From the NCBI GenBank assembly GCA_041661005.1, contig JBAZVG010000001.1, positions 671,515 through 735,514 on the forward strand: 64,000 nt of DNA, written 5' to 3'. A model generated the notes under the pieces. The model saw only the letters and a list, made by a program, of their open reading frames with translations. It searched no databases and was not told where the DNA came from. Source of the DNA: Minisyncoccota bacterium (lineage in GTDB: Bacteria; Patescibacteriota; Minisyncoccia; Phycocordibacterales; UBA9973). Each line of letters starts with the position of its first letter. Position 1 is the first letter of the stretch. Shown here in pieces: positions 1 to 64,000 of this stretch. The translations under genes were made by a program, and so were the position numbers.

Positions 1-2492
1 ACGCACGCCAATTTTTGAATCAAATGCCCAAACCAGATGTAGATGAAATTACTGGTCTTTCTCCAGCGATTTCGATTGATCAAAAATCTCGTTCGAACAA
101 TCCGCGTTCGACAGTGGCTACAATTACTGAAATTTATGATTACCTTCGAGTTATGTATGCGCGCATCGGACATCCGCATTGTCCAAAATGTGGAGAAGAA
201 ATTAAAAAACTTTCGAACGAAGAAATTTTAAATTTTGTTTTAGAAAAGATAGATGTTTTGAGTAAAAATTCAAAGAACAACAAAAAAATTATGGGAGTGG
301 AGTGGAATGAGATGCAAATTAATATTTTCTCCCCAATAGTGCGTGGACGGAAAGGGGAATATTATCAATTACTTTATGATTTGCTTGGAAAAGGTTTTTC
401 TGAAATTCGTCTCGATGGGGTGATGAAGAAGCTCCGTGAACAAATAACTCTTTCAAAAAATAAAGCTCACAAAATTGATATTTTAGTCGATAATTTTGCC
501 ATACACGAGTTTAAAGATAATAAAGAAAATAGTCGAATGCGTCTTTCTGAAGCGATTGAACGTGCGTTGATTGAATCTGATGGTCTTGTGACGATTTCTT
601 TTGGTAATCCGGAGCAGAAACATACTTTTTCGAATGGTCTGGCCGGGGGAGGGACCCGGGGAACCGAGGACCTGAGTAAAAAGAATGTTTCTACGGAGGA
701 GGAATTTATTATGTCCGCGAAATTTGCTTGCAAAAATGATGGTTTCTCTTTCCCTGAAGTTGAACCTCGATTATTCTCCTTCAATTCTCCGTATGGCGCA
801 TGTTCGGCCTGCAACGGTCTCGGCTCAAAATATTTTATGGGATCGGAACCTTGTGATGTTTGTCATGGTGCGCGACTTCGTCCTGAAGCCTTGAATGTTT
901 TTTTAACTGCTTCAAAAAAGAAAGTTAATATTTTAGATCTCTCTTCTTTGTCAATTGCTGATGCGCATGATTTTTTTAAAAATTTAAAACTTTCAGAACA
1001 GGAAAAAGAAATATCTGTGCCAGTGGTGCGTGAAATTGAAGCTCGACTTCAATTTATGTTAGATGTTGGCCTCGATTATCTACAGCTTTCTCGCAAGGCC
1101 AACACGCTTTCAGGCGGTGAAGCTCAACGCATTCGACTTGCTTCTCAGCTTGGTTCGCGTCTTGTTGGTGCGCTTTATGTTTTAGATGAACCTACAATCG
1201 GTCTGCATCAACGCGACAACGATCGGCTGATAACAACATTGCAAAATTTGCGGGATTTGGGCAATACTATTTTGATTGTAGAACACGATGAAGACACTAT
1301 TTACGCCTCGGATTATATTGTAGATATTGGACCAAAAGCTGGGGTGCATGGTGGAGAAGTCATTGTGTCTGGATATCTAGAAGAGTTATTAACTGCCAAC
1401 CTCGTAGGAAAAAATACTAAGTCTAGGACCCTTGGCTACCTAAGAGGTGAATTAAAAATAGAAGTTCCCAAGAAGCGACGCGATTCAAAAGGACAGTTGC
1501 GTATCGCCGGAGGAAAAATTTTCAACATAAATAATTTAAATGTTGAAGTTCCCCTCGGTGTGATGACTTCTATTACTGGAGTGTCTGGTTCCGGAAAAAG
1601 TTCTTTTATGTATGAGATTCTTTATAAAAATCTTCAGGCTCGATATGAACGCAAATATCGTTCAGCGCAGGTGTTTAATTGTTCTTCATTTTCGGGTACT
1701 GAATATCTCTCTCGCGTAATTTTGATCGACCAGTCTCCAATCGGCAGAACTCCACGTTCAAATTTGGCGACTTACACAGGTGCGTTTACCCACATTCGAG
1801 ATCTTTTTGCCACGACGGAAGAAGCACGATTGCGTGGCTGGAAAGCAAACCGGTTTTCTTTTAATGTGAAAGGTGGTCGCTGTGAAGCTTGCGAGGGAAA
1901 CGGTGAATTGGCTGTCGAGATGCATTTTTTGCCAACAGTTTATGTGACTTGCGATGTCTGTAATGGAAAACGTTTCGACAAAGAAACTTTAACGGTAAAA
2001 TACAAAAAGAAAAATATTTATGAAGTTCTGCACATGACTGTCGAAAATGGACTTGTCTTTTTTAAAGATATTCCAGCTATTTCTGATAGATTGCAAACTC
2101 TCCTCGATGTGGGGCTTGGCTACCTAGAGCTTGGCCAGAGCGCGACAACGCTCTCTGGAGGAGAGGCGCAACGGGTAAAGATATCTAGCGAGCTTTACCG
2201 TCCACACACAGAAAAAACAATCTATCTTTTAGACGAGCCGACGGTCGGACTTCATTATGACGATGTACAGAAACTTCTAGAAGTTTTAAATAAACTTGTG
2301 GTAAAAGGCAACACCGTTGTTCTCATAGAGCACAACCTTGATATTATAAAAAGCTCGGATTACATTATAGACATAGGTCCCGAAGGGGGAGTAAATGGAG
2401 GTAATTTGGTGGCCAAAGGCACCCCAGAAGAAGTGGCCAATAATTTAAAGAGTTATACGGGAAAGTATTTAAAGAAAGCTCTACGCAAATGA
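1..2492 (+). CDS. uvrA: Excinuclease ABC subunit A (UvrA), 5'-truncated by window edge
   Basis: The frame is open to position 1, so the true start lies upstream and the TTG at 15 is an ORF-caller artefact. Two ABC ATPase domains are present (Walker A 'GVSGSGKSS', signature 'LSGGEAQR' twice) with the UvrA zinc-finger cysteines. Collinear with the UvrA 'GLSPAISIDQKS...' region. Confidence 0.95.
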   Translation, partial: ARQFLNQMPKPDVDEITGLSPAISIDQKSRSNNPRSTVATITEIYDYLRVMYARIGHPHCPKCGEEIKKLSNEEILNFVLEKIDVLSKNSKNNKKIMGVEWNEMQINIFSPIVRGRKGEYYQLLYDLLGKGFSEIRLDGVMKKLREQITLSKNKAHKIDILVDNFAIHEFKDNKENSRMRLSEAIERALIESDGLVTISFGNPEQKHTFSNGLAGGGTRGTEDLSKKNVSTEEEFIMSAKFACKNDGFSFPEVEPRLFSFNSPYGACSACNGLGSKYFMGSEPCDVCHGARLRPEALNVFLTASKKKVNILDLSSLSIADAHDFFKNLKLSEQEKEISVPVVREIEARLQFMLDVGLDYLQLSRKANTLSGGEAQRIRLASQLGSRLVGALYVLDEPTIGLHQRDNDRLITTLQNLRDLGNTILIVEHDEDTIYASDYIVDIGPKAGVHGGEVIVSGYLEELLTANLVGKNTKSRTLGYLRGELKIEVPKKRRDSKGQLRIAGGKIFNINNLNVEVPLGVMTSITGVSGSGKSSFMYEILYKNLQARYERKYRSAQVFNCSSFSGTEYLSRVILIDQSPIGRTPRSNLATYTGAFTHIRDLFATTEEARLRGWKANRFSFNVKGGRCEACEGNGELAVEMHFLPTVYVTCDVCNGKRFDKETLTVKYKKKNIYEVLHMTVENGLVFFKDIPAISDRLQTLLDVGLGYLELGQSATTLSGGEAQRVKISSELYRPHTEKTIYLLDEPTVGLHYDDVQKLLEVLNKLVVKGNTVVLIEHNLDIIKSSDYIIDIGPEGGVNGGNLVAKGTPEEVANNLKSYTGKYLKKALRK
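636..678 (+). repeat. GC-rich in-frame insert in uvrA, homologous to the loop of the uvrA-uvrC intergenic hairpin (reverse orientation)
   Basis: 'ggtctggccgggggagggacccggggaaccgaggacctgag' aligns with the reverse complement of 2529-2570 ('ggtctggctggggcgcggggccccagagaaccgaggacctg'). It encodes 'GLAGGGTRGTEDL', which is absent from canonical UvrA at this point. Confidence 0.7.
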
Positions 2493-2499
2493 TAGTTTC

Positions 2500-2582
2500 G
2501 CCAGCAGAAGCATTTATTCAGGTCCTCGGTTCTCTGGGGCCCCGCGCCCCAGCCAGACCGTTCATAAATGCTTCTGCTGGCT
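2500..2582. repeat. Long hairpin element: 18-bp perfect inverted repeat (gccagcagaagcatttat / ataaatgcttctgctggc) around a 47-nt GC-rich core
   Basis: Perfect arms at 2500-2517 and 2565-2582. The core contains 'ggggcccc' and the family-1 motif. It lies between the uvrA stop (2492) and the likely uvrC start (2595); the ORF-caller ATG at 2568 sits inside the right arm. Confidence 0.8.
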
Positions 2583-2594
2583 TCACATAAATAT

Positions 2595-3968
2595 ATGAAA
2601 ATTGAATCTTTTAAAAAATCAAGATTGCCTGACAAACCAGGTGTTTATTTCTTTAAGAATAAGAAGAGTATTTTATATATCGGAAAGGCGACTTCCTTGC
2701 GGGATAGAGTAAAAAGTTATTTTGGCAAAGACCTGATTGAAACAAGGGGTCCAATACTTGTGGATATGGTTTTTAATGCGGCAAAAATTGACTGGCAAGT
2801 TACTGATAGTGTGCTTGAAGCCATAATCCTTGAAGCGAATCTAATAAAAAAATATCAGCCGAAATATAATACAAAAGAAAAATCTGACAAAAGTTTTAAT
2901 TATGTTTGCATTACAAGAGAACCTTTACCCAAGGTGGTTATCGTGCGGGGTAAAAACCTCGCCCCTTTCCATTTTTCGTCCCTGCGCCCTTCCCTTGAGT
3001 ACAAGGGCGGGACCCTCGGGAAGCTCAAAATAGAAAGGGGCTCGGTTTCATTTACTAGCATATTTGGTCCTTATACTAGCGGTTCTCAACTTCGTGAGGC
3101 GATGAAAATTATCCGCAGAATTTTCCCCTTTTTAGATGATAAAAGTAAAAATTATATGGAGTTTTATAGGCAGATAAATTTAGTGCCTGATTTGGATGAC
3201 CTGCCTCGACTAGGCAAGGCGGGTCGAAAAATGTATTTACAAAATATTAGAAATATAAAATTGTTTTTTGAGGGTAAAAAGAAAAAAGTTTTGCAAAATT
3301 TACAGAAAGAAATGAAAGAATATGCGCAAAAGCATGAATTCGAAAAAGCGGGTGAAGTGAAAAGACAAATTTTTGCTTTGCAACATATTAATGATATAGC
3401 TCTTTTAAGGAACGGAGAGCAGTATGTTCTCAAGGGAACCCTTGGTAGGAGTGGCGACGACGGACAGAGAAAATTTCCAGCAGGAAATTTTCGTGGTGAG
3501 TCTGAGAATATGCTGCTAGAAGTTTTTAAGATAGAAGCCTATGACATCGCCCACATGGGGGGCAAAAATATGGTGGGGGTGATGACTGTTGTTGAAGATG
3601 GGGAAGTAAACAAAAGCGAATACAAAAAATTCAAAATAAAAACTCAAATTAATGCGAATGACACAGGAGCGCTCAAAGAGGTTTTAGAGAGACGTTTGAG
3701 ACACACAGAATGGCCTTTTCCATCTTTAATCGTTGTCGATGGGGGAGTTGCCCAGTTAAATGTGGTAAAAACCGTCTTAAATAAAATAAGTGTAAATATT
3801 CCAGTGGTATCAGTGGTAAAGGATGAAAAACATAACCCAAAAAGTATCATGGGTAATGAAGAATTTATTTCTAAATATAAATCATCTATTTTACTTGCAA
3901 ACAATGAAGCGCACAGGTTTGCCATTGCTTACCATAAAAACATGCGCAATAAAAATTTCTTAAAATGA
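2595..3968 (+). CDS. uvrC: UvrC-like excinuclease subunit (GIY-YIG nuclease, short form lacking C-terminal HhH)
   Basis: N-terminus 'MKIESFKKSRLPDKPGVYFF...ILYIGKATSLRDRVKSYF' is a GIY-YIG motif. The start was refined to the ATG at 2595, outside the hairpin. It contains two GC-rich in-frame inserts (2941-3050 and 3439-3502). Confidence 0.85.
   Translation: MKIESFKKSRLPDKPGVYFFKNKKSILYIGKATSLRDRVKSYFGKDLIETRGPILVDMVFNAAKIDWQVTDSVLEAIILEANLIKKYQPKYNTKEKSDKSFNYVCITREPLPKVVIVRGKNLAPFHFSSLRPSLEYKGGTLGKLKIERGSVSFTSIFGPYTSGSQLREAMKIIRRIFPFLDDKSKNYMEFYRQINLVPDLDDLPRLGKAGRKMYLQNIRNIKLFFEGKKKKVLQNLQKEMKEYAQKHEFEKAGEVKRQIFALQHINDIALLRNGEQYVLKGTLGRSGDDGQRKFPAGNFRGESENMLLEVFKIEAYDIAHMGGKNMVGVMTVVEDGEVNKSEYKKFKIKTQINANDTGALKEVLERRLRHTEWPFPSLIVVDGGVAQLNVVKTVLNKISVNIPVVSVVKDEKHNPKSIMGNEEFISKYKSSILLANNEAHRFAIAYHKNMRNKNFLK
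3439..3502 (+). repeat. Family-2 64-nt element, in-frame within uvrC (copy 1)
   Basis: 62/64 nt identical to 47214-47277 in rnhA. It contains the hairpin 'gaaaattt-ccagcagg-aaattttc' and encodes 'LGRSGDDGQRKFPAGNFRGES'. Confidence 0.9.
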
Positions 3969-5909: not shown

Positions 5910-5934
5910 AATTTTTCTTTATGCTACAGTCAAC

Positions 5935-5962
5935 AAAAAAGCCATCATTGATGGCTTTTTTG
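5935..5962. terminator. Rho-independent terminator (bidirectional) between convergent genes
   Basis: 'aaaaaagccatcattgatggctttttt': 8-bp stem gccatca/tgatggc flanked by A-run and T-run. Confidence 0.75.
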
Positions 5963-5972
5963 TTCTGTTGTT

Positions 5973-7600: not shown

Positions 7601-7855
7601 ATGCCAATAACACAGTCAGCTAAAAAAGCAATCAGAGGTTCCTTGCGTAAAAAGGCTTTTAATGACAGCCGTAAGCGCGCGATGAAGGAGATAATCAAGA
7701 AAATCGAGAAAATTGCTAAGACAGACAAGAAAGAGGCGCTTAAAATGCTATCTTCGGCTTTTGCTATCATAGACAAAGCAGCTCAAAAGAACGTTATCAA
7801 GAAAAACAATGCTGCTCGCAAGAAGGCTCGTTTATCAAGATTAACCAAAAGCTAG
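7601..7855 (+). CDS. rpsT: 30S ribosomal protein S20
   Basis: 'MPITQSAKKAIRGSLRKKAFNDSRKRAMKE...'. The start was refined to the ATG at 7601, with a -10-like 'tattatat' upstream. Confidence 0.9.
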   Translation: MPITQSAKKAIRGSLRKKAFNDSRKRAMKEIIKKIEKIAKTDKKEALKMLSSAFAIIDKAAQKNVIKKNNAARKKARLSRLTKS

Positions 7856-7870
7856 ACATTTTATTTTTTA

Positions 7871-7934
7871 GGGTACAGATTTTTTGAAGCTTAAAAAATC
7901 CTGAAGTTCTCGGCTCGCCAGCCTCGAAACCCCC
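7871..7934 (+). repeat. Intergenic repeat family, copy A (two-hairpin element)
   Basis: 'gggtacagattttttgaagcttaaaaaatcctgaagttctcggctcgccagcctcgaaacccc' is about 95% identical to 45211-45276 and matches the reverse complement of 49226-49289. Confidence 0.9.
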
Positions 7935-7964
7935 TAAAAAACAAAATCTCCAGCTTTTTAAAAC

Positions 7965-8228
7965 ATGAACCATCTATTAGAATTCTATGGAACGGAATGC
8001 CCACATTGTGTAACAATGCATGGGTTAGTGGAAAAATTAGAAAAAGAAGAAGGAATAAAAGTTGAAAGCTTGGAAGTCTGGCACAACAAGGAAAATGAAA
8101 AGCGTCTTTTGGAATTAGATAAAGATTTGTGTGGCGGTGTTCCTTTTTTATATAACTTAAAATCAAAAAAGTGGATATGCGGGGAAGCGAGCTATGAAGA
8201 GCTAAAGAATTGGGCTCAAGATAAATAA
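7965..8228 (+). CDS. Glutaredoxin/thioredoxin-fold protein (CPHC active site)
   Basis: 87 aa with 'YGTECPHCV' CxxC motif. Confidence 0.6.
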   Translation: MNHLLEFYGTECPHCVTMHGLVEKLEKEEGIKVESLEVWHNKENEKRLLELDKDLCGGVPFLYNLKSKKWICGEASYEELKNWAQDK

Positions 8229-8242
8229 AAATAGACAAAATA

Positions 8243-8269
8243 AAAAACCACCCGTGAGGGTGGTTTTTT
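8243..8269. terminator. Rho-independent terminator
   Basis: 'aaaaaaccacccgtgagggtggtttttt', placed between the convergent glutaredoxin-like gene and csp. Confidence 0.8.
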
Positions 8270-8305
8270 ATTGGAAGAATTCCCGCCGTGCTGGCCGGGA
8301 CAAGC

Positions 8306-21192: not shown

Positions 21193-21365
21193 AATTTTAG
21201 TGGATTGAAACTATTTTTTGAAACTTGTTGCAGGTGTAGTTTTAGATAGACATTGCACAGGCTGACGAGCCGAGCATAGCAAATTTTCAGCAGAAAATTA
21301 TGTCGTGTCTAGATAAAACTATACCAAGAAAGAGTTTCAAAAGAAAATAGTTTCAATAATAAATT

Positions 21366-33837: not shown

Positions 33838-36471
33838 ATGAAAAAAATTATTTTGGTTGCGTTTGTTTTGTGGTTGGGTATTTCAGCGACAAGCGCTGAG
33901 GCAGGAACAAGTTCGGTGGTTGCTACTGTAAATATCTATAATGCAAGAATTGAATCTCAGAACGAAAATACTTTTAATATTTCTTTCGATCTTTCAAACC
34001 GTGAAGGTGTTCAGTCTGGAATCAAATATTCAACCGTTCTCACAAAACTTCCGAGTAACGAGATTGTTGATGAGCAGGTATATGACGAGACACTCTCATT
34101 AAGTGAAAACGAAACTGTTTCTAAAAATATTACATATACTCCCTCTACATCTTTATCTTCGGGTGTTTATACGCTTTGGATTCAAAGTAAAAACGATCGA
34201 GGTTTCTCATTTGCAATGGCCGATCTTGGGAATGTCACATTGACTTCGTCAAAATCACCGAAAGTTGAAATTCTGTCGGATACTTGTTACTTGACCATAG
34301 ACAACAAAAAACCTGTTGAAAAATATTCCCTTATTCAAGGGTTGAGTATTAATTATGCGGATGTTCTCGTTGCCACATGCAAGGTTTCCAGCACCTTTCC
34401 TGCAACGACTCATTATGTCCCAACATTTGAAACTTATTTCAGATCAACCTTTGGCGATAAAGCAAACCAGACGAGTGATCCGACTAACCTTCTTGCAATA
34501 CCAAAAGGAGTCTCTTCAATCTCCGTAGTTATTCCAAAAGCAACACAACCTCAATCCTATGAGACTAAATTTTATTTAACCGATTCTAACGGTTTGAATA
34601 AATCTAACGCGGTCAACATCAATTACGTTCTCAAAGGAATTAGTGGAACTATACAGAATGCTGTTTTTGACAAGGATGCATACATAAAGGGGGATACCGC
34701 GCGTTTGCAAATTTTTGCTACTTTTCCCGAAGGGAATCAAAAACTAGATGTTGTGATAACAGATCAGAAAGGCGATGAGTGCGGTTCATTTACGAAACAA
34801 GATCTAAAAAACGATGAACCAGTTGTTGATGTTTCTGTTGAAATAGAAAAGGATTGTGAAAATCCAATTGCGCAAGTAACTCTTTCCGGCATATTGGATG
34901 GAAACTCAGGTTTTCAAACTCTTGATTCAAGAGAATTTCAGACGTCATTGGATTCTGAGTCCGCGACTGTGGCCAAACCTGGAGTGATTATTTTAATTGT
35001 TGCTGGAATTCTGTTGATACTCGCGGTTTTATTTTTCTCGTATAGAAATAAAAGAATAATCAAGATCTCTGTTTTGTTTTTATTTTTTATTGGGATATCG
35101 ATTTTTGGAGATGTTAGGGAAGCCAAAGCTGACACAGTGACATATACTCCTGATCCGGATGTGGGTACTTTCATATTTACACTCAGCACAAATAAATCCA
35201 TATATGATGTAGGAGAAAGGGTCAGAGTTACTGGATCGGTGACTTTTTTGTTGGCGCCGAGTCGATCTTCATTTGAAGGTATAGCTGTCTCTCCATATAT
35301 AACGGCGACAATTGACAATGTGCCACCTGCCAGAAAATTTTGGCAAGATCCCTACGATATACATTTCATAAGAACGTTTGGTTCAGCATCTTTGACATTT
35401 AATAGAGCTTTATCAATTGGGAATCATCATGCTGTCTCTAATAATTTTGGCAGTGTTTTTTTTGACTCTTCACTATCGTATGGAACTATCTCTGTGCCTT
35501 TTGAAGTGAGCGCGCTTGTTCCTCCCGTTGTCACTATTCAAGCAACTCCAGCCACTGTGGAACTTCCCGCAAATGATTCTACATTACTAGAATGGTCTGC
35601 GACGAATGATCCGACAGAATGTACTGCGTCTGGTGATTGGAGTGGAGATAAAGATGTTTCAGGTTCACAGACTATTTCTGGTCTTACGGTTGGAGAATAT
35701 ACATATACTTTGGTTTGTTCAAATGCAAGCGGGTCAAGTGCTCCGAGTAGCGCGAATGTGACGGTAATAAATCCTTTACTAGACGATATGTCTGGTGTCT
35801 TGCTTGCTAATCCAGTTCACTGCGATGTTCTCGAAGGGCAAAGAAGTTGCTACACAGATCTTGCTTGGAATGTAACTAATCCTGAAATTGTGGGTGGATC
35901 TACCGTGACTAGTAATACTGATAACGATGGAAATGTTTCACATAATTTTAGTATTATTCCGCCTGTAAGCTCGGGCACCACAGACTCTGGGACAAAATCA
36001 AATGTCGCTGTTTCGCACACGGGCAGAACATTTTTCCTATACAATAACGGTCACGAATTTCCCCCAATTACGGTAACTGCAAGTTGTGCTCCGGGGGCTG
36101 ATTGGAATGCTGGTACTAAAACCTGCAAGGTTGGTGGCAATGGCAATGGTAACGGTAACTGTACCGACGGTATAAGAAATGGGGACGAGACAGGTGTTGA
36201 TATTGGTGGCCGTTGTGGTGGTGGTATTGGTAACGGTAACTGTACCGACGGTATAAGAAATGGGGACGAGACAGGTGTTGATATTGGTGGCCGTTGTGGT
36301 GGTGGTATTGATGCCAGGGGTGTCTGTTCTGATGATCATTCTCTTCCTTGTTCTTCTGGTAGGCCTAGTGAAATTTTAAGTAGTCCGAGTCTTTGGACGT
36401 GGACTTGTTCAGGGACAGACACATCTGAATTGTGCACAGAACCTAAAAGTCCTATCTTTATAGAAGATTAA
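33838..36471 (+). CDS. Large (877 aa) surface protein with signal peptide, internal TM pair, Ig-like regions, perfect 81-bp tandem duplication and C-terminal 'KSPIFIED'
   Basis: Signal peptide 'MKKIILVAFVLWLGISATSAEA'. Internal hydrophobic pair 'VIILIVAGILLILAVLFF...ISVLFLFFIGISIFG'. Two copies of the repeat 'GNGNCTDGIRNGDETGVDIGGRCGGGI'. Confidence 0.65.
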   Translation: MKKIILVAFVLWLGISATSAEAGTSSVVATVNIYNARIESQNENTFNISFDLSNREGVQSGIKYSTVLTKLPSNEIVDEQVYDETLSLSENETVSKNITYTPSTSLSSGVYTLWIQSKNDRGFSFAMADLGNVTLTSSKSPKVEILSDTCYLTIDNKKPVEKYSLIQGLSINYADVLVATCKVSSTFPATTHYVPTFETYFRSTFGDKANQTSDPTNLLAIPKGVSSISVVIPKATQPQSYETKFYLTDSNGLNKSNAVNINYVLKGISGTIQNAVFDKDAYIKGDTARLQIFATFPEGNQKLDVVITDQKGDECGSFTKQDLKNDEPVVDVSVEIEKDCENPIAQVTLSGILDGNSGFQTLDSREFQTSLDSESATVAKPGVIILIVAGILLILAVLFFSYRNKRIIKISVLFLFFIGISIFGDVREAKADTVTYTPDPDVGTFIFTLSTNKSIYDVGERVRVTGSVTFLLAPSRSSFEGIAVSPYITATIDNVPPARKFWQDPYDIHFIRTFGSASLTFNRALSIGNHHAVSNNFGSVFFDSSLSYGTISVPFEVSALVPPVVTIQATPATVELPANDSTLLEWSATNDPTECTASGDWSGDKDVSGSQTISGLTVGEYTYTLVCSNASGSSAPSSANVTVINPLLDDMSGVLLANPVHCDVLEGQRSCYTDLAWNVTNPEIVGGSTVTSNTDNDGNVSHNFSIIPPVSSGTTDSGTKSNVAVSHTGRTFFLYNNGHEFPPITVTASCAPGADWNAGTKTCKVGGNGNGNGNCTDGIRNGDETGVDIGGRCGGGIGNGNCTDGIRNGDETGVDIGGRCGGGIDARGVCSDDHSLPCSSGRPSEILSSPSLWTWTCSGTDTSELCTEPKSPIFIED
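36148..36309 (+). repeat. Perfect tandem duplication, 2 x 81 bp, in-frame within surface-protein gene
   Basis: Units 36148-36228 and 36229-36309 are identical base for base. Confidence 0.9.
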
Positions 36472-44849: not shown

Positions 44850-45186
44850 TTTTTTTTGCGTTCTCACTTAGATTTTTTTCATCACCCGAAACTTCTGGCC
44901 ATACCCAAATGTGCGCGTGAGATATTTCCTCACCATAAACTTGAGAACGTATAATATCTGCATTAAATGCTTTTTTTTGAGCCAATGCTATTTTTTTAGC
45001 GATTTCAAAATATTCTCCAATATTTGGCACATCCCAAACCCATCGGTAATGCCTTTTTGGTATTATCTGGGTATGGCCCGGACTCATCGGCTTTATATCT
45101 AAAAAAGCCAGGAAATTTTCATCCTCGTAGACTATGTTAGCAGGTATTTCTTTTTTTACTATTTTACAAAAAATGCAATTTTCCAT
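44833..45186 (-). CDS. HIT-family (histidine triad) hydrolase
   Basis: 'MENCIFCKIV...' with histidine triad 'HAHIWVWP'. The start was refined to the ATG at 45186; the longer ORF-caller N-terminus reads through repeat copy B. Confidence 0.8.
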   Translation of the reverse strand: MENCIFCKIVKKEIPANIVYEDENFLAFLDIKPMSPGHTQIIPKRHYRWVWDVPNIGEYFEIAKKIALAQKKAFNADIIRSQVYGEEISHAHIWVWPEVSGDEKNLSENAKKIIQAL

Positions 45187-45210
45187 GGAAAGTTTTTTAA
45201 ATATAATTTT

Positions 45211-45276
45211 TTCCGGTACGGATTTTTTGAAGCTTAAAAAATCCTGAAATTCTCGGCTCGCCAGCCTCGAAACCCC
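45211..45276 (+). repeat. Intergenic repeat family, copy B
   Basis: 'ccggtacggattttttgaagcttaaaaaatcctgaaattctcggctcgccagcctcgaaacccc'. Confidence 0.9.
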
Positions 45277-45389
45277 TTCAAAAATCATATTTCAAAAAAC
45301 TTTATCTATTATATGCTAAAACAATTTCTAATGGAAATTGTTCGCACGAACATTCGCAGGGCGAATGTTTTAGTGCTAAAATTCCATTT

Positions 45390-47098: not shown

Positions 47099-47716
47099 AT
47101 GAAACAAAATAAAATAGTTATTTATACAGATGGGGCGGCAAAGGGGAATCCAGGAAGGGCAGGTTGGGGCGCGGTTTTTATAATTTACGGAGGTCAGAAT
47201 ACTCACGAGCGAGCCCTTGGTAGGAGTGGCGACGACGGACAGAGAAAATTTTCAGCAGAAAATTTTCGTGGTGAGTCCGTGGGTATTCTGACCGAAGTAA
47301 TTGAAATTGGCGGAGGAGTAGAACATGCGACAAATAATCAGATGGAATTAACTGCTCCGATAGAGGCGCTGAAATATTTTAAGCAAATAATAAATACACA
47401 GGCAACGCCTGTGTATGATATCGAAATTATTTCTGATTCTAAGTATGTGATCTTGGGAATTACGGAGTGGATTTTTAATTGGCAGAAAAATAATTGGCGC
47501 AATGCTGCCAAAAAGCCAGTTGTAAATCGTGAACTCTGGGAGGAACTTTATGAACTTACCCAAGAATTGAAACCCAAATGGACATATGTCAAAGGACACA
47601 ATGAGGATAAATACAACGACCGTGCGGATCTTATAGCTACAAGTTTTGCGGAAGGCGAGCCGGTGGAGCTTAATCCCGGTAGTAGAGCAAAGCTCACTAC
47701 GGGACAAGGAAAATAA
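47099..47716 (+). CDS. rnhA: Ribonuclease HI with ~25-aa in-frame repeat-encoded insertion
   Basis: 'IYTDGAAKGNPGRAGWG...TNNQMEL...' catalytic motifs. The insertion 'LGRSGDDGQRKFSAENFRGESVGIL' sits between beta strands relative to E. coli RNase HI. Confidence 0.85.
   Translation: MKQNKIVIYTDGAAKGNPGRAGWGAVFIIYGGQNTHERALGRSGDDGQRKFSAENFRGESVGILTEVIEIGGGVEHATNNQMELTAPIEALKYFKQIINTQATPVYDIEIISDSKYVILGITEWIFNWQKNNWRNAAKKPVVNRELWEELYELTQELKPKWTYVKGHNEDKYNDRADLIATSFAEGEPVELNPGSRAKLTTGQGK
47214..47277 (+). repeat. Family-2 64-nt element, in-frame within rnhA (copy 2)
   Basis: 62/64 identical to 3439-3502, in the same orientation and the same codon phase. Confidence 0.9.
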
Positions 47717-47734
47717 AATACTTTTTATTATTCT

Positions 47735-49216
47735 ATGCGAGATAGAATTTTTTATGCAATATGTTTTGGTTTTATTTTTGGAGTATTTTTACGCTCTTTT
47801 TTCTTCATAAATTTTTATTTCGTACTGTTTCTTGCTTTCTTGGCAAGTGTCTTAATTATCTACTTTAGTTTAGTAAAGTTTGAATGGGGAATAATCGCCG
47901 GAATTTTTCTGTTAGTGTTTTCACTTGGAATTTTTAGATTTCAGGTGGTTGATGTTTTAGCACCTAATATTTTTGAGTCTCAAGTTGATAAAAAAATTTC
48001 TTTATCGGGAATTGTTGTAGATGAGCCGGATATTAGGGAAAATAATCAAAAATTAACTATTGAAACGAAATCGGACGCTCTGAAAACGAAAATTTTAGTT
48101 ACTGTGAATTTTGGTCAGGATTTTAAATATGGAGATGAGATAAAATTTTCTGGAAAATTAGAGAAACCGGAGAATTTTACGACTGATCAGGGTAAAAACT
48201 TTGACTACATAAATTATTTGCGAAAAGATGGCATTCATTACGTAATGAATTACGTAACTGCTGAAATTATTTTACGAGGGAATGGTAATTTTATCAAAAA
48301 TACCCTGTTTTCTATTAAAGAAAAGTTTTTAGAAAAAATGAATTTGGCGATACATGGTTCCGAATCGCTCTTGATGGGTGGGCTTATTTTAGGGGAGAAG
48401 GCTTCTTTTAGCCAAGAATTAAGAAAGAATTTTATTGATACAGGCACGATACACATAGTGGCTCTCTCTGGCTACAACATTACTATAATTGCCGAATGGA
48501 TTATGAAGTTATTTGCTTTTTTACCTAAAAATCTTGGCATAGGGGTGGGTATTTTCGCAATTTTACTTTTTATATTAATGACTGGCGGAAGTTCTACAGC
48601 AATACGAGCAGGGATAATGGCTACACTTGCGCTTATTGCCCGCGCGACAGGTAGGAATTACGATGTCGCGCGGGCGCTCCTTCTCGCTGGTGTGGGAATG
48701 ATTTTATTAAATCCATTTGTATTGGCGTATGATGTTTCTTTTCAGCTTTCTTTTATCGCCACAGTTGCTGTTATTTTCTTGGCGCCGAAGATTGAGAAAT
48801 ATTTTTTATGGGTGCCGGATATTTTTAAATTGCGGGACATTGTATCCGTTACTTGCGCCGCGTATATCTTCGTTTTACCATTCATCCTCTACAAAATGGG
48901 AAATTTATCTCTGGTTGCCTTACCGGCGAATGTTTTAATTTTACCTTTTATTTCTTTTACCATGGCGCTCGGTTTTCTGACTGGCTTTGTTGGACTTATT
49001 TCACACATGCTGGCAGTGCCGTTTGGGTTTATTTCATATTTATTCTTGCATTATGAACTTGGTGTGATTGATTTTTTCTCTAGTCTTCCATTTGCTTCTT
49101 TTTCTATTCCAAATTTTCCTCTCATTTTGACAATCTTAATTTATATCTATTTTATTTATAGACTTTTTGGCAGAAACATAAAAAGTTTTTTTATTGAATT
49201 TAAAAATCAAGAGTAA
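47735..49216 (+). CDS. comEC: ComEC/Rec2 competence (DNA internalisation) membrane domain, encoded separately from its MBL domain
   Basis: 493 aa, polytopic, with a competence-domain pattern. No metallo-beta-lactamase domain is present within this ORF. Confidence 0.7.
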   Translation: MRDRIFYAICFGFIFGVFLRSFFFINFYFVLFLAFLASVLIIYFSLVKFEWGIIAGIFLLVFSLGIFRFQVVDVLAPNIFESQVDKKISLSGIVVDEPDIRENNQKLTIETKSDALKTKILVTVNFGQDFKYGDEIKFSGKLEKPENFTTDQGKNFDYINYLRKDGIHYVMNYVTAEIILRGNGNFIKNTLFSIKEKFLEKMNLAIHGSESLLMGGLILGEKASFSQELRKNFIDTGTIHIVALSGYNITIIAEWIMKLFAFLPKNLGIGVGIFAILLFILMTGGSSTAIRAGIMATLALIARATGRNYDVARALLLAGVGMILLNPFVLAYDVSFQLSFIATVAVIFLAPKIEKYFLWVPDIFKLRDIVSVTCAAYIFVLPFILYKMGNLSLVALPANVLILPFISFTMALGFLTGFVGLISHMLAVPFGFISYLFLHYELGVIDFFSSLPFASFSIPNFPLILTILIYIYFIYRLFGRNIKSFFIEFKNQE

Positions 49217-49225
49217 TGTTTTTAA

Positions 49226-49289
49226 GGGGTTTTGAGCGCGACGGCGCGAAAATTTCAGGATTTTTTAAGCTTCAAAAAATCCGTACCGG
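49226..49289 (-). repeat. Intergenic repeat family, copy C (inverted orientation)
   Basis: 'ggggttttgagcgcgacggcgcgaaaatttcaggattttttaagcttcaaaaaatccgtaccgg' is the reverse complement of copies A/B. The GC hairpin ggct-cgcc-agcc is replaced by cgcg-acgg-cgcg, a compensatory change. Confidence 0.85.
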
Positions 49290-49310
49290 CAAAAATATTA
49301 CTCTTGATTT

Positions 49311-49910
49311 TTATTTTGCTTCAATAAAATTCTTTTCAATTACCTCCCAATTTAAGTTTTCAAAAAATGCCTCTACATATTTTTTCTTTTCTGAAGTAGG
49401 GTAGTCGTAAACGAAAGCATGTTCCCACATATCCAGCGCAAGAATTATCTTACAAGTGGCAAGTTGTCCCAAATGCTGTTCGTCTACCCATGCATTTAAA
49501 AGACGTTTGGTTTGAGGATCATAGTAGAGCATAGCCCAGCCTATGCCACGGGTAAGAGCTGTAGATTTAAAACGATTAAGCCACACGTCAAAAGAATTCC
49601 ATTCGGCAACGATAGCTTGTTTTAATTTACTATCATCCGCGAGAGTGTGAGCTCCACCAGAAAGAGATTCAAAATAAATCTCATGATTTCGCATGCCATT
49701 GTATTCAAATCCGAATCTGCGCTGGATTTCGCTTACGACGTAGGGCGCAAAAGCATCCTCTTTCGCATAACCCTCGTATTCAGGAATTTTTTCCAGAATA
49801 AGATTCGTATTTTTCACATAACCCGCATAGAGCTTTAGATGCTCTTCAATGTTTTTAGCTGATATTCCTTTCAATGTTCCGATATTAAATTTTATTTCTT
49901 CAAATTTCAT
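49311..49910 (-). CDS. sodA: Superoxide dismutase, Fe/Mn family
   Basis: '...HHxxHH...' motifs and the C-terminal 'DMWEHAFVYDY' motif. Confidence 0.9.
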   Translation of the reverse strand: MKFEEIKFNIGTLKGISAKNIEEHLKLYAGYVKNTNLILEKIPEYEGYAKEDAFAPYVVSEIQRRFGFEYNGMRNHEIYFESLSGGAHTLADDSKLKQAIVAEWNSFDVWLNRFKSTALTRGIGWAMLYYDPQTKRLLNAWVDEQHLGQLATCKIILALDMWEHAFVYDYPTSEKKKYVEAFFENLNWEVIEKNFIEAK

Positions 49911-58325: not shown

Positions 58326-58417
58326 GCGAAGTTTTTGTAAAATTTCTTGAAACTGCGCCCTCGAGGTCATAAGGACAGGGAACCCACACGTTTCTTAAAA
58401 TTTTGCAAAAACTTCGC
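58326..58417. repeat. Long hairpin element: ~28-bp AT-rich inverted repeat around a 36-nt GC-rich core, between dut and argS
   Basis: Left arm 'gcgaagtttttgtaaaatttcttgaaac'; right arm reverse complement 'gcgaagtttttgcaaaattttaagaaac'. The core 'tgcgccctcgaggtcataaggacagggaacccacac' contains the palindrome cctcgagg. Confidence 0.8.
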
Positions 58418-62748: not shown

Positions 62749-63321
62749 TTGGAAGAAATGAAATCAAACATTTTTATTTTTCACGGAACAGAAGGTCATC
62801 CAAATGAAAATTGGTTTCCTTGGCTAAAGGAAAAACTTGAAGCAAAAGGTAACAAAGTTTTTGTGCCACAATTTCCTTCACCGCCAGTGGTGCCAGCGAA
62901 AATTTCAGAATGGTTTGAAGTGCTAAAAGAATACGAACAATATATTAACGAAGATACTATTTTAATCGGGCATAGTTTGGGTGGTGTTTTTACTTTAAGA
63001 GTTTTGGAACAATTGAAACATCCAATAAAAGGTGCTTTTTTGACTGGAACACCGATAGGAGTAAGACCAAATTTAAATTATGACAGAGTTAATGGTTTTA
63101 GTGGTTTTAATTTTGATTGGGGAAAGATAAAAAAGAATGCAAAGCATTTTGATGTATTTCAATCTGACAACGATCCTTATGTGGGACTAGACAATGGGAA
63201 AGAACTGGCAAAAAATCTTGAAGTCGAACTCACATTTATTCCAAACGCAGGACATTTTAATAAAAGAGCAGGATATTTAAGTTTCCCTGATTTATTAGCA
63301 AAAGTTGAAGGAATTTTATGA
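62749..63321 (+). CDS. Alpha/beta hydrolase of the RBBP9/YdeN serine-hydrolase family
   Basis: 'IFIFHG', the 'IGHSLGG' nucleophile elbow and C-terminal 'DPYV' and 'GHF' motifs. Confidence 0.7.
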   Translation: MEEMKSNIFIFHGTEGHPNENWFPWLKEKLEAKGNKVFVPQFPSPPVVPAKISEWFEVLKEYEQYINEDTILIGHSLGGVFTLRVLEQLKHPIKGAFLTGTPIGVRPNLNYDRVNGFSGFNFDWGKIKKNAKHFDVFQSDNDPYVGLDNGKELAKNLEVELTFIPNAGHFNKRAGYLSFPDLLAKVEGIL

Positions 63322-64000
63322 AGTCAAAACTATTTAAATTTCTTAAGTTATTATTAAAAATAATCACACTTCTTATCGTAGTATATTTTATATTCTCTAT
63401 CATTGTACGACCGTCCTTGAATCGACAATGGAATAAGGATCAAGAAGTTTTGGCGCGAGCGACTTTTAATGAGAATATTATTTCCATTAAAAATATTCGA
63501 AATATAAACTATCGATCAACTACAGATTATGATGTTCGATATTACGATAAAGTTTTTGATTTAAATAAATTAAATTCAGTTTGGTATATGGTTGAGCCCT
63601 TTACGGGGCATGGGGCTGGGGCAGCGCATACTTTAGTTTCTTTTGGATTTGAAAATGGAGACTATGTTTCCATATCTGTCGAAATACGAAAAGAAAAAGG
63701 GGAATCTTTTGGAGCAATAAAAGGACTTTTGAGGCAGTACGAACTAGTCTATGTTATTGCTGACGAAAGAGATGTCATAAAACTAAGATCAAATTATCGA
63801 AAAGATGAAGTTTTCTTGTACCCAGTTGTGACTACAAAAGAAAATATGCAAAAGCTTTTCATATCTATGCTTAATAGAGCAAACAAGCTTGCAACTGAAC
63901 CAGAATTTTACAATACTCTGACAAGCACATGTACTACAAATATTGTTTCTCATGTAAATGAAATAGTTCCAAACAGAATTCCTTTTAGTTTTAAAGTTTT
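63318..64000 (+). CDS. DUF4105-like membrane-anchored protein, 3'-truncated by window edge
   Basis: Open frame from the ATG at 63318 (ATGA overlap with the previous stop) with no stop before the window end. N-terminal TM segment and 'TSTCTTN' motif. It is not in the ORF track because no stop lies inside the window. Confidence 0.45.
   Translation, partial: MKSKLFKFLKLLLKIITLLIVVYFIFSIIVRPSLNRQWNKDQEVLARATFNENIISIKNIRNINYRSTTDYDVRYYDKVFDLNKLNSVWYMVEPFTGHGAGAAHTLVSFGFENGDYVSISVEIRKEKGESFGAIKGLLRQYELVYVIADERDVIKLRSNYRKDEVFLYPVVTTKENMQKLFISMLNRANKLATEPEFYNTLTSTCTTNIVSHVNEIVPNRIPFSFKV

Follow-up and report, generated by a model that had tools for sequence, protein, structure and literature searches.

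What are the three similar palindromic repeats that lie between genes in a 64,000-nt stretch of the genome of a Minisyncoccota bacterium (contig JBAZVG010000001.1; hereafter, the window), and why do they keep their ability to pair while changing in sequence? The initial annotation described them as a three-copy intergenic family with compensatory base changes, and inferred a structured element selected at the level of RNA or DNA structure. We confirmed the observation, and our results support the inference. The three copies align over about 66 nt, and the 25-mer GGATTTTTTGAAGCTTAAAAAATCC, when up to 3 mismatches are allowed, matches the window at 7877-7901(+), 45220-45244(+) and 49258-49282(-), whereas 100 shuffles gave 0 matches. 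A covariance model built from relatives scores the three copies at 95-96 bits (E about 1e-22), with the next-best hit in the window scoring 15 bits. As noted in the initial annotation, the GC hairpin of the third copy differs from the other two, and it does so by three fully compensated pairs (G-C/C-G, C-G/G-C and U-A/C-G). However, the family is not confined to three copies, each copy is only the tip of a much longer inverted repeat, the better-folding strand is the reverse complement of the one originally considered, and the element does not appear to be simply a terminator.

The gene contexts, confirmed with Pfam, are likewise as first described. Copy A follows rpsT (S20) and precedes a small thioredoxin-like ORF; copy B lies between HIT(-) and recJ(+); and copy C lies between the convergent comEC(+) and sodA(-). 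The whole hairpin of copy A, on the - strand, spans 7847-7958, with 27-nt stem arms at 7847-7873 and 7932-7958 that are 89% complementary; the left arm contains the rpsT stop codon (7853-7855) and the right arm ends 6 nt before the ATG of the thioredoxin-like gene (7965). Its 63-nt conserved core, or cap, occupies 7871-7933 (model hit 7867-7937(-), 96 bits) and includes helix P2 at 7877-7901 and helix P3 at 7907-7928. Copy B, also on the - strand, extends from about 45187 to 45305, with arms at about 45187-45213 and 45280-45305 around a cap at 45214-45276 (P2 45220-45244; P3 45250-45271; model hit 45210-45280(-), 94.7 bits). It abuts the HIT start codon (45184-45186, - strand), lies 2-4 nt from the conserved, apparently bidirectional -10 motif ATTATATGCTAAAA (45308-45321), and is read through only by an over-extended ORF call, the true HIT start being at 45186. 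Copy C, on the + strand, spans 49202-49312, with arms at 49202-49223 and 49291-49312 and weaker pairing out to 49180-49334; its left arm encodes the last codons and the stop of comEC (49214-49216), its right arm ends at the sodA stop (49311-49313, - strand), and its cap lies at 49226-49288 (P2 49258-49282; P3 49231-49252, the compensated variant cgcg/cgcg; model hit 49222-49292(+), 95.5 bits).

Searches beyond the window showed that the cap occurs in at least 74 species-level metagenome-assembled genomes (MAGs) of the Paceibacteria (Candidate Phyla Radiation, CPR), including Nomura-, Yonath-, Vogel- and Yanofskybacteria, Minisyncoccia, and MAGs auto-labelled Saccharibacteria. Its sequence is essentially unchanged, although the flanking proteins have drifted to 65-85% identity. 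The unit as a whole is a 110-170-bp imperfect palindrome (110-120 bp in the window), in which a 20-30-bp stem of copy-specific sequence, P1, carries an invariant three-way junction. The conserved part is 63 nt in 114 of 124 copies and reads GG-UAC, followed by P2 (9 bp, AU-rich, with a 7-nt loop containing AAGCUU), UGAAR, P3 (3 bp, a 2x2 internal loop, 4 bp and a CGNC loop), AA and CCCC, the whole being closed by a conserved U5/A5 helix and an internal loop. A few copies carry extra GC hairpins inserted in the junction, in P2 or in P3. Using banded local alignment with a control, we found that the flanks of each copy pair with each other (a median of 23 Watson-Crick pairs, reaching about 28 nt out), whereas flanks of different copies do not (a median of 8).

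All helices covary. On 108 distinct sequences, the structure we specified gives 91% paired cells, and all 7 P3 pairs show changes on both sides, with up to 4 pair types per position and 93% pairing; the covariation score is 0.278, against 0.105 in shuffles and at most 0.054 when the partners are slid. P2 was frozen by the search pattern in that set, but in 23 copies found by the model, ten of them in loci fetched through the RecJ protein and so unbiased, 4 of 9 P2 pairs show compensated changes with 100% pairing.

Several signs indicate that the fold is specific to the strand opposite to the one used in the initial annotation (hereafter, the original strand), that is, - for copies A and B and + for copy C. 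On the original strand, the P2 closing pair is G-C in 97 copies, A·C in 20 (as in copy A), A-T in 6 and G·T in none, and the stem has 78 A·C against 35 G·U. The P3 internal loop, U·C/C·U on the original strand, becomes a tandem G·A/A·G in a 5'-CGAG/CGAG context on the other, where the loop next to the cap becomes GAA/GAA-like. Whole hairpins are 5-15 kcal/mol more stable on that other strand (for copy A, -46.6 kcal/mol on the - strand and -31.9 on the + strand). The A·C to G·U ratio is about 2:1 in every gene context and therefore follows the element, not the direction of host transcription; we infer that known deamination biases would predict the opposite asymmetry.

With respect to location, copies follow a stop codon in about 90% of cases. 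Based on our ORF calls around 108 copies, 49 lie between tandem genes with the original strand in the mRNA sense, 17 between tandem genes in the opposite orientation, 31 between convergent genes and 11 between divergent genes. The hairpin base lies a median of 1-4 nt from the stop codon of the upstream gene, often with the stop inside the arm, and the next start lies a median of 13-16 nt beyond the hairpin (13 nt in tandem contexts). The upstream genes are ordinary housekeeping genes, often operon-final, and include those for EF-Tu, EF-G, FtsZ, L7/L12, L2, S9, S20, RNase Y, Map, sodA, recA and efp; 133 Pfam families were found in 108 proteins, with no transposase and no association with a particular neighbor. 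The strand with the optimized fold is usually antisense to neighboring tandem genes (49:17). It lies on the C-rich strand in 81 of 109 loci, although GC skew and gene strand are too correlated (r = 0.83) for replication and gene orientation to be separated as causes of this bias. Since the cap can be inverted on its stem (see below), the 3:1 bias, and the 7 of 7 at comEC/sodA, look selected, possibly owing to preferential deletion of the stronger hairpin on the lagging-strand template or to harm from the stronger fold in abundant mRNAs.

To determine whether the element has moved, we compared orthologous sites, designating loci from relatives by numbers with the prefix L. The rpsT-trx site of copy A is occupied in L064 and L072, whose flanking proteins are 75-84% identical to those of the window; the cap is unchanged, the stems differ, and each stem pairs. 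For the other two sites, we fetched 80 RecJ loci from metagenomes, in which only 10 strong cap hits occur in 695 kb, or about 1 copy per 70 kb in an unbiased sample, and both sites are mostly empty. Among 43 relatives with both comEC and sodA, 26 have the two genes overlapping or nearly touching, the common form being a 17-nt overlap that is also seen in L023, so that the 95-nt spacer of the window is derived. Six relatives carry this cap at that site, in the same orientation as the window, about 8 carry other hairpin families, 3 have larger insertions, and L196 keeps what looks like a single arm; in filled sites, the last codons and the stop of comEC are supplied by the stem. In L143 (5623-5865) and L193 (3580-3897), two different hairpin elements lie in tandem at this junction, one being an AAACTC...GAGTTT-type stem with another cap, followed by the main element.

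Among 56 relatives with HIT upstream of recJ, 32 are empty at the site of copy B and read CAT-N6-10-ATTATATGCTAAAAT. This motif, found in the window at 45308-45321, reads as an extended -10 (TGCTAAAAT) for recJ and, on the other strand, as TATAAT 6-10 nt from the HIT ATG, suggesting a bidirectional promoter and a nearly leaderless HIT mRNA in relatives without an insertion. Five relatives carry the cap under study at this site, and 9-10 carry a second cap family, cap2 (TCAGGTCCTCGGTTCYCYGGG..CCCRGCCAGACCRTTC), which also occurs in L054 (7398-7421) and in the window at 616-692(-) and 2500-2581(+), on its own variable stems and with compensated changes between copies. Notably, stems are shared across caps: AGAAAGTTTT..AAAAT occurs with this cap in L125, L159 and the window, and with cap2 in L154, L158, L178 and L149, whereas (G/A)CAGAATAAAATTTTT occurs with this cap in L140 and with cap2 in L162 and L132. 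Similarly, the stem motif AAACTCTTnCTYGGCA...GCCTGCGACGAGTTT occurs with this cap in L001, L068, L077, L090 and L098, and with a third cap in L118, L128 and L149. L155 has the same stem and the same rare P3 loop as copy B, but with the cap inverted, and L142, L129 and L166 keep one arm only. In addition, L021 and L049, from the same MAG, share stem plus cap between different flanks, indicating duplication of the whole unit, although only 5 of about 7,600 copy pairs share arms. Copies within one genome are slightly more alike than copies from different genomes (7.0 against 8.8 differences, p about 0.001), even though the same P3 types coexist in many genomes.

Collectively, these results show that whole hairpins have been gained, lost and copied to new sites at gene boundaries, that the cap has been inverted on its stem, and that different caps occur on homologous stems. 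We favor, with moderate confidence and in the absence of expression data, the interpretation that the element is, or was, a non-autonomous, hairpin-shaped mobile repeat of the Paceibacteria. Under this view, the cap would be recognized as a folded single strand (RNA or ssDNA) by a trans-acting factor, most likely the machinery that copies or moves it, whereas the long stem would make the insertion self-contained by folding back on itself in a transcript and bringing together the flanks, namely, a stop codon and the following start, or a promoter and the ATG. Copies between genes of an operon, or in a leader, would therefore be tolerated, with the host selecting for continued pairing of the stem, and at operon ends the same hairpin may serve as a 3'-end structure, either an attenuator or a barrier to exonucleases. 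The mobilizing activity is unknown, as no target-site duplication above control was detected and no transposase, HUH or RT gene was seen beside any copy. Furthermore, retention of copy A with an unchanged cap in three species fits a host-selected function as well as, or better than, a selfish element, and the transcript carrying the better fold is often not the mRNA.

The main rival, which remains possible but which we consider less likely, is a non-mobile cis-acting RNA module of the host, that is, a specialized terminator, 3'-end stabilizer or RNase processing site, with the cap binding a host protein and the stem evolving in place by compensatory change. The operon-final neighbors, the excess of convergent over divergent sites, the coexistence of P3 types in many genomes, and the re-paired stem at rpsT-trx all favor this view, as does the enrichment of T-runs after the stem: a run of at least 4 occurs in 39% and 32% of copies in the original and the other direction, respectively, against 16.5% background, and a run of at least 5 in 26% and 20%, against 7%. 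Nevertheless, most copies lack a U-tract, and transcription would have to read through to the close downstream starts in tandem contexts. Moreover, the site of copy B is a promoter-to-ATG spacer, the same sites are empty or hold unrelated caps in most relatives, whole units are duplicated at unrelated loci, and the fold is optimized on the strand usually not in the mRNA, whatever the gene orientation. It is even less probable that the hairpins are independently transcribed, trans-acting small RNAs, each with a promoter in the flank and the stem acting as terminator. Although the structured strand is often antisense to its neighbors, the asymmetry follows the element, and a consensus-like -10 sits 2-4 nt from the base of copy B on the structured strand, no conserved promoter lies at a fixed distance from the hairpins, no consistent -35/-10 was found inside the cap, and promoter-like hits are no more frequent than in shuffles. 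In addition, the flanks are coding sequence within a few nt on both sides, U-tracts are infrequent, and a trans-acting RNA would not need a different stem at every locus.

A classical MITE, mobilized by a transposase acting on terminal inverted repeats, is similarly unlikely. The element is short, non-coding, palindromic, multi-copy and polymorphic in insertion, and L143 has TACTGA on both sides of its two-element insertion; however, the termini are the least conserved part and the center the most, the best flanking direct repeat has a mean length of 3.39 nt against 3.26 in the control across 120 copies, and no partner IS was seen in the 8-12-kb genome pieces examined. Least likely of all is a double-stranded DNA site in which the near-palindromic P2 (GGATTTTTT-AAGCTT-AAAAAATCC) is bound by a dimeric nucleoid, partition or restriction-related protein and the rest is carried along passively. 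P2 is indeed nearly invariant, and in L064 it is a perfect palindrome, but it tolerates compensated changes at 4 of 9 pairs, the asymmetric extra base in its loop is conserved, P3 and P1 covary while their sequence changes, and the G·U/A·C and G·A/U·C asymmetries are meaningless for duplex DNA. Finally, a more speculative reading, which we put forward only tentatively, is that the caps are the recognized and transferable part of a new kind of mobile element, in which a folded, strand-specific cap, rather than the termini, directs copying into or between stems, either by an ssDNA (HUH-like) route or by an RNA route (RNase III-trimmed hairpin plus reverse transcription). Several cap families would then compete for the same stems and gene-boundary sites across the Paceibacteria, with the host keeping the stems paired so that the insertions stay invisible to expression.

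We found no description of the element in the literature searched, and no match in viral contigs and hence no sign of a phage vector. Against Rfam 15, the whole window gave only a tRNA, and a permissive scan of 7800-8000 gave only sub-threshold plant and animal miRNA-precursor hits (29 bits or less against gathering scores of 74 and above), as any AU-rich hairpin would. In lifestyle, the element is closest to ERIC, REP/BIME and Correia-type repeats. ERIC (IRU) elements are comparable in architecture, apparently being about 120-bp imperfect palindromes that fold into one long RNA hairpin, occur in either orientation in transcribed spacers and at 3' ends, are conserved across genera, and vary in presence between related genomes; they belong to a different phylum, and in the Paceibacteria element the center is invariant, the arms are free, caps are exchanged between stems, and no TA target duplication was detected. 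REP/BIME elements are also extragenic, structured, strand-specific hairpins at gene ends, without target duplication and with a proposed dual life as mobile repeats and mRNA 3'-end stabilizers or attenuators, but they are 20-40-nt single hairpins with a conserved 5' GTAG, present in hundreds of copies, whereas here a three-way junction without GTAG sits on a long stem, at roughly 10-40 copies per genome by extrapolation. Neisseria Correia elements and other bacterial MITEs are small palindromic repeats co-transcribed with genes, with long double-stranded RNA stems of the kind cut by RNase III, but MITE copies share terminal repeats and make fixed target duplications. As in bidirectional intrinsic terminators, many stems are flanked by an A-run on the 5' side and a T-run on the 3' side, yet the stems are long and AT-rich with a 63-nt structured tip, and ordinary terminators in the window, for example at 8239-8272 and 5932-5964, look quite different.

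Other candidate identities were not supported. The hammerhead-like CUGACGAG occurs in only one P3 type and is lost in the others, and the junction strands are GGU, YUUCA and GUA. A K-turn reading of the CGAG/CGAG motifs was rejected, because the loops are symmetric tandem G·A without the 3-nt bulge, and CGAG pairs in the outer stem occur in only 5 of 120 copies. The layout is the opposite of that of integron attC sites, which have core sites at the outer ends and a variable center, and the neighbors are housekeeping genes, not cassettes. DNA uptake sequences are 9-12-nt motifs at about 1 per kb, whereas the density here is 1 per 21-70 kb and the covarying core indicates selection on a folded single strand. 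TIGR-Tas arrays are tandem, while these copies are dispersed. Although one frame is open through the cap in all three copies of the window, the compensated P3 changes give unrelated residues, and a coding role was rejected. Almost nothing is known about the non-coding RNAs or repeats of the CPR bacteria, which are almost all uncultured and have tiny, tightly packed genomes. If selfish, the element represents a new architecture for a bacterial repeat, with a conserved cap and a free stem; if taken over by the host, it is a candidate universal 3'-end or spacer module of these organisms. In either case, ORF callers run through these hairpins, as with the HIT and uvrC N-termini (the latter overlapped by the cap2 copy at 2500-2581) and the comEC C-terminus in the window.

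The window also contains what appear to be sibling families, as well as other repeats. A 130-nt repeat (79% identical) at 3403-3532 and 47178-47307 lies in frame inside uvrC and inside RNase HI, giving the peptide LGRSGDDGQRKF[PS]A[GE]NFRGES and, in RNase HI, splitting the Pfam domain into two stretches. Each copy has its own outer inverted repeat, with compensated differences and G·U pairs on the coding strand, and looks like a hairpin element inserted in frame, as in the Rickettsia palindromic elements, also a palindromic repeat family in a reduced genome; the three copies under study, by contrast, are intergenic and have no sequence relation to the latter. An intergenic hairpin with 37-nt arms at 21216-21342, between what, judging from the translations, appear to be a PduO-type adenosyltransferase-like ORF and a class II RNR-like ORF, gives a weak covariance model hit of 15 bits. 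Its cap shares the P3-like hairpin AGGCUGACGAGCCGAG with the main element, has a different AU hairpin (AAAUUUUC-AGCA-GAAAAUU), and also occurs in L098, L027 and, at the comEC/sodA site, L191. Another long hairpin at 58326-58417 (28-nt arms, 86% complementary) has an unrelated, GC-richer 36-nt tip and is possibly a further cap family, and two more inverted repeats, at 2954-3048, inside the uvrC ORF, and at 63255-63359, have 51-53-nt centers (22- and 26-nt arms). Between copy B and recJ, a small palindrome with 28-nt arms (45330-45388) is bracketed by two copies of the GCTAAAA(T) promoter motif, is absent from the spacers of the relatives, and looks like another insertion that duplicated the -10 region. 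A different element is inserted just before the recJ ATG in L146, L147, L180, L123, L152, L171 and L197; it has inverted ends TCCCGTTAGA.../...TCTAACGGGA with ATGCA on both sides and, unlike the main element, displays conserved termini and an apparent 5-nt target duplication. Finally, a tandem 81-nt direct repeat (94% identical), GTGGCAATGGCAATGGTAACGG..., is present at 36134-36295.
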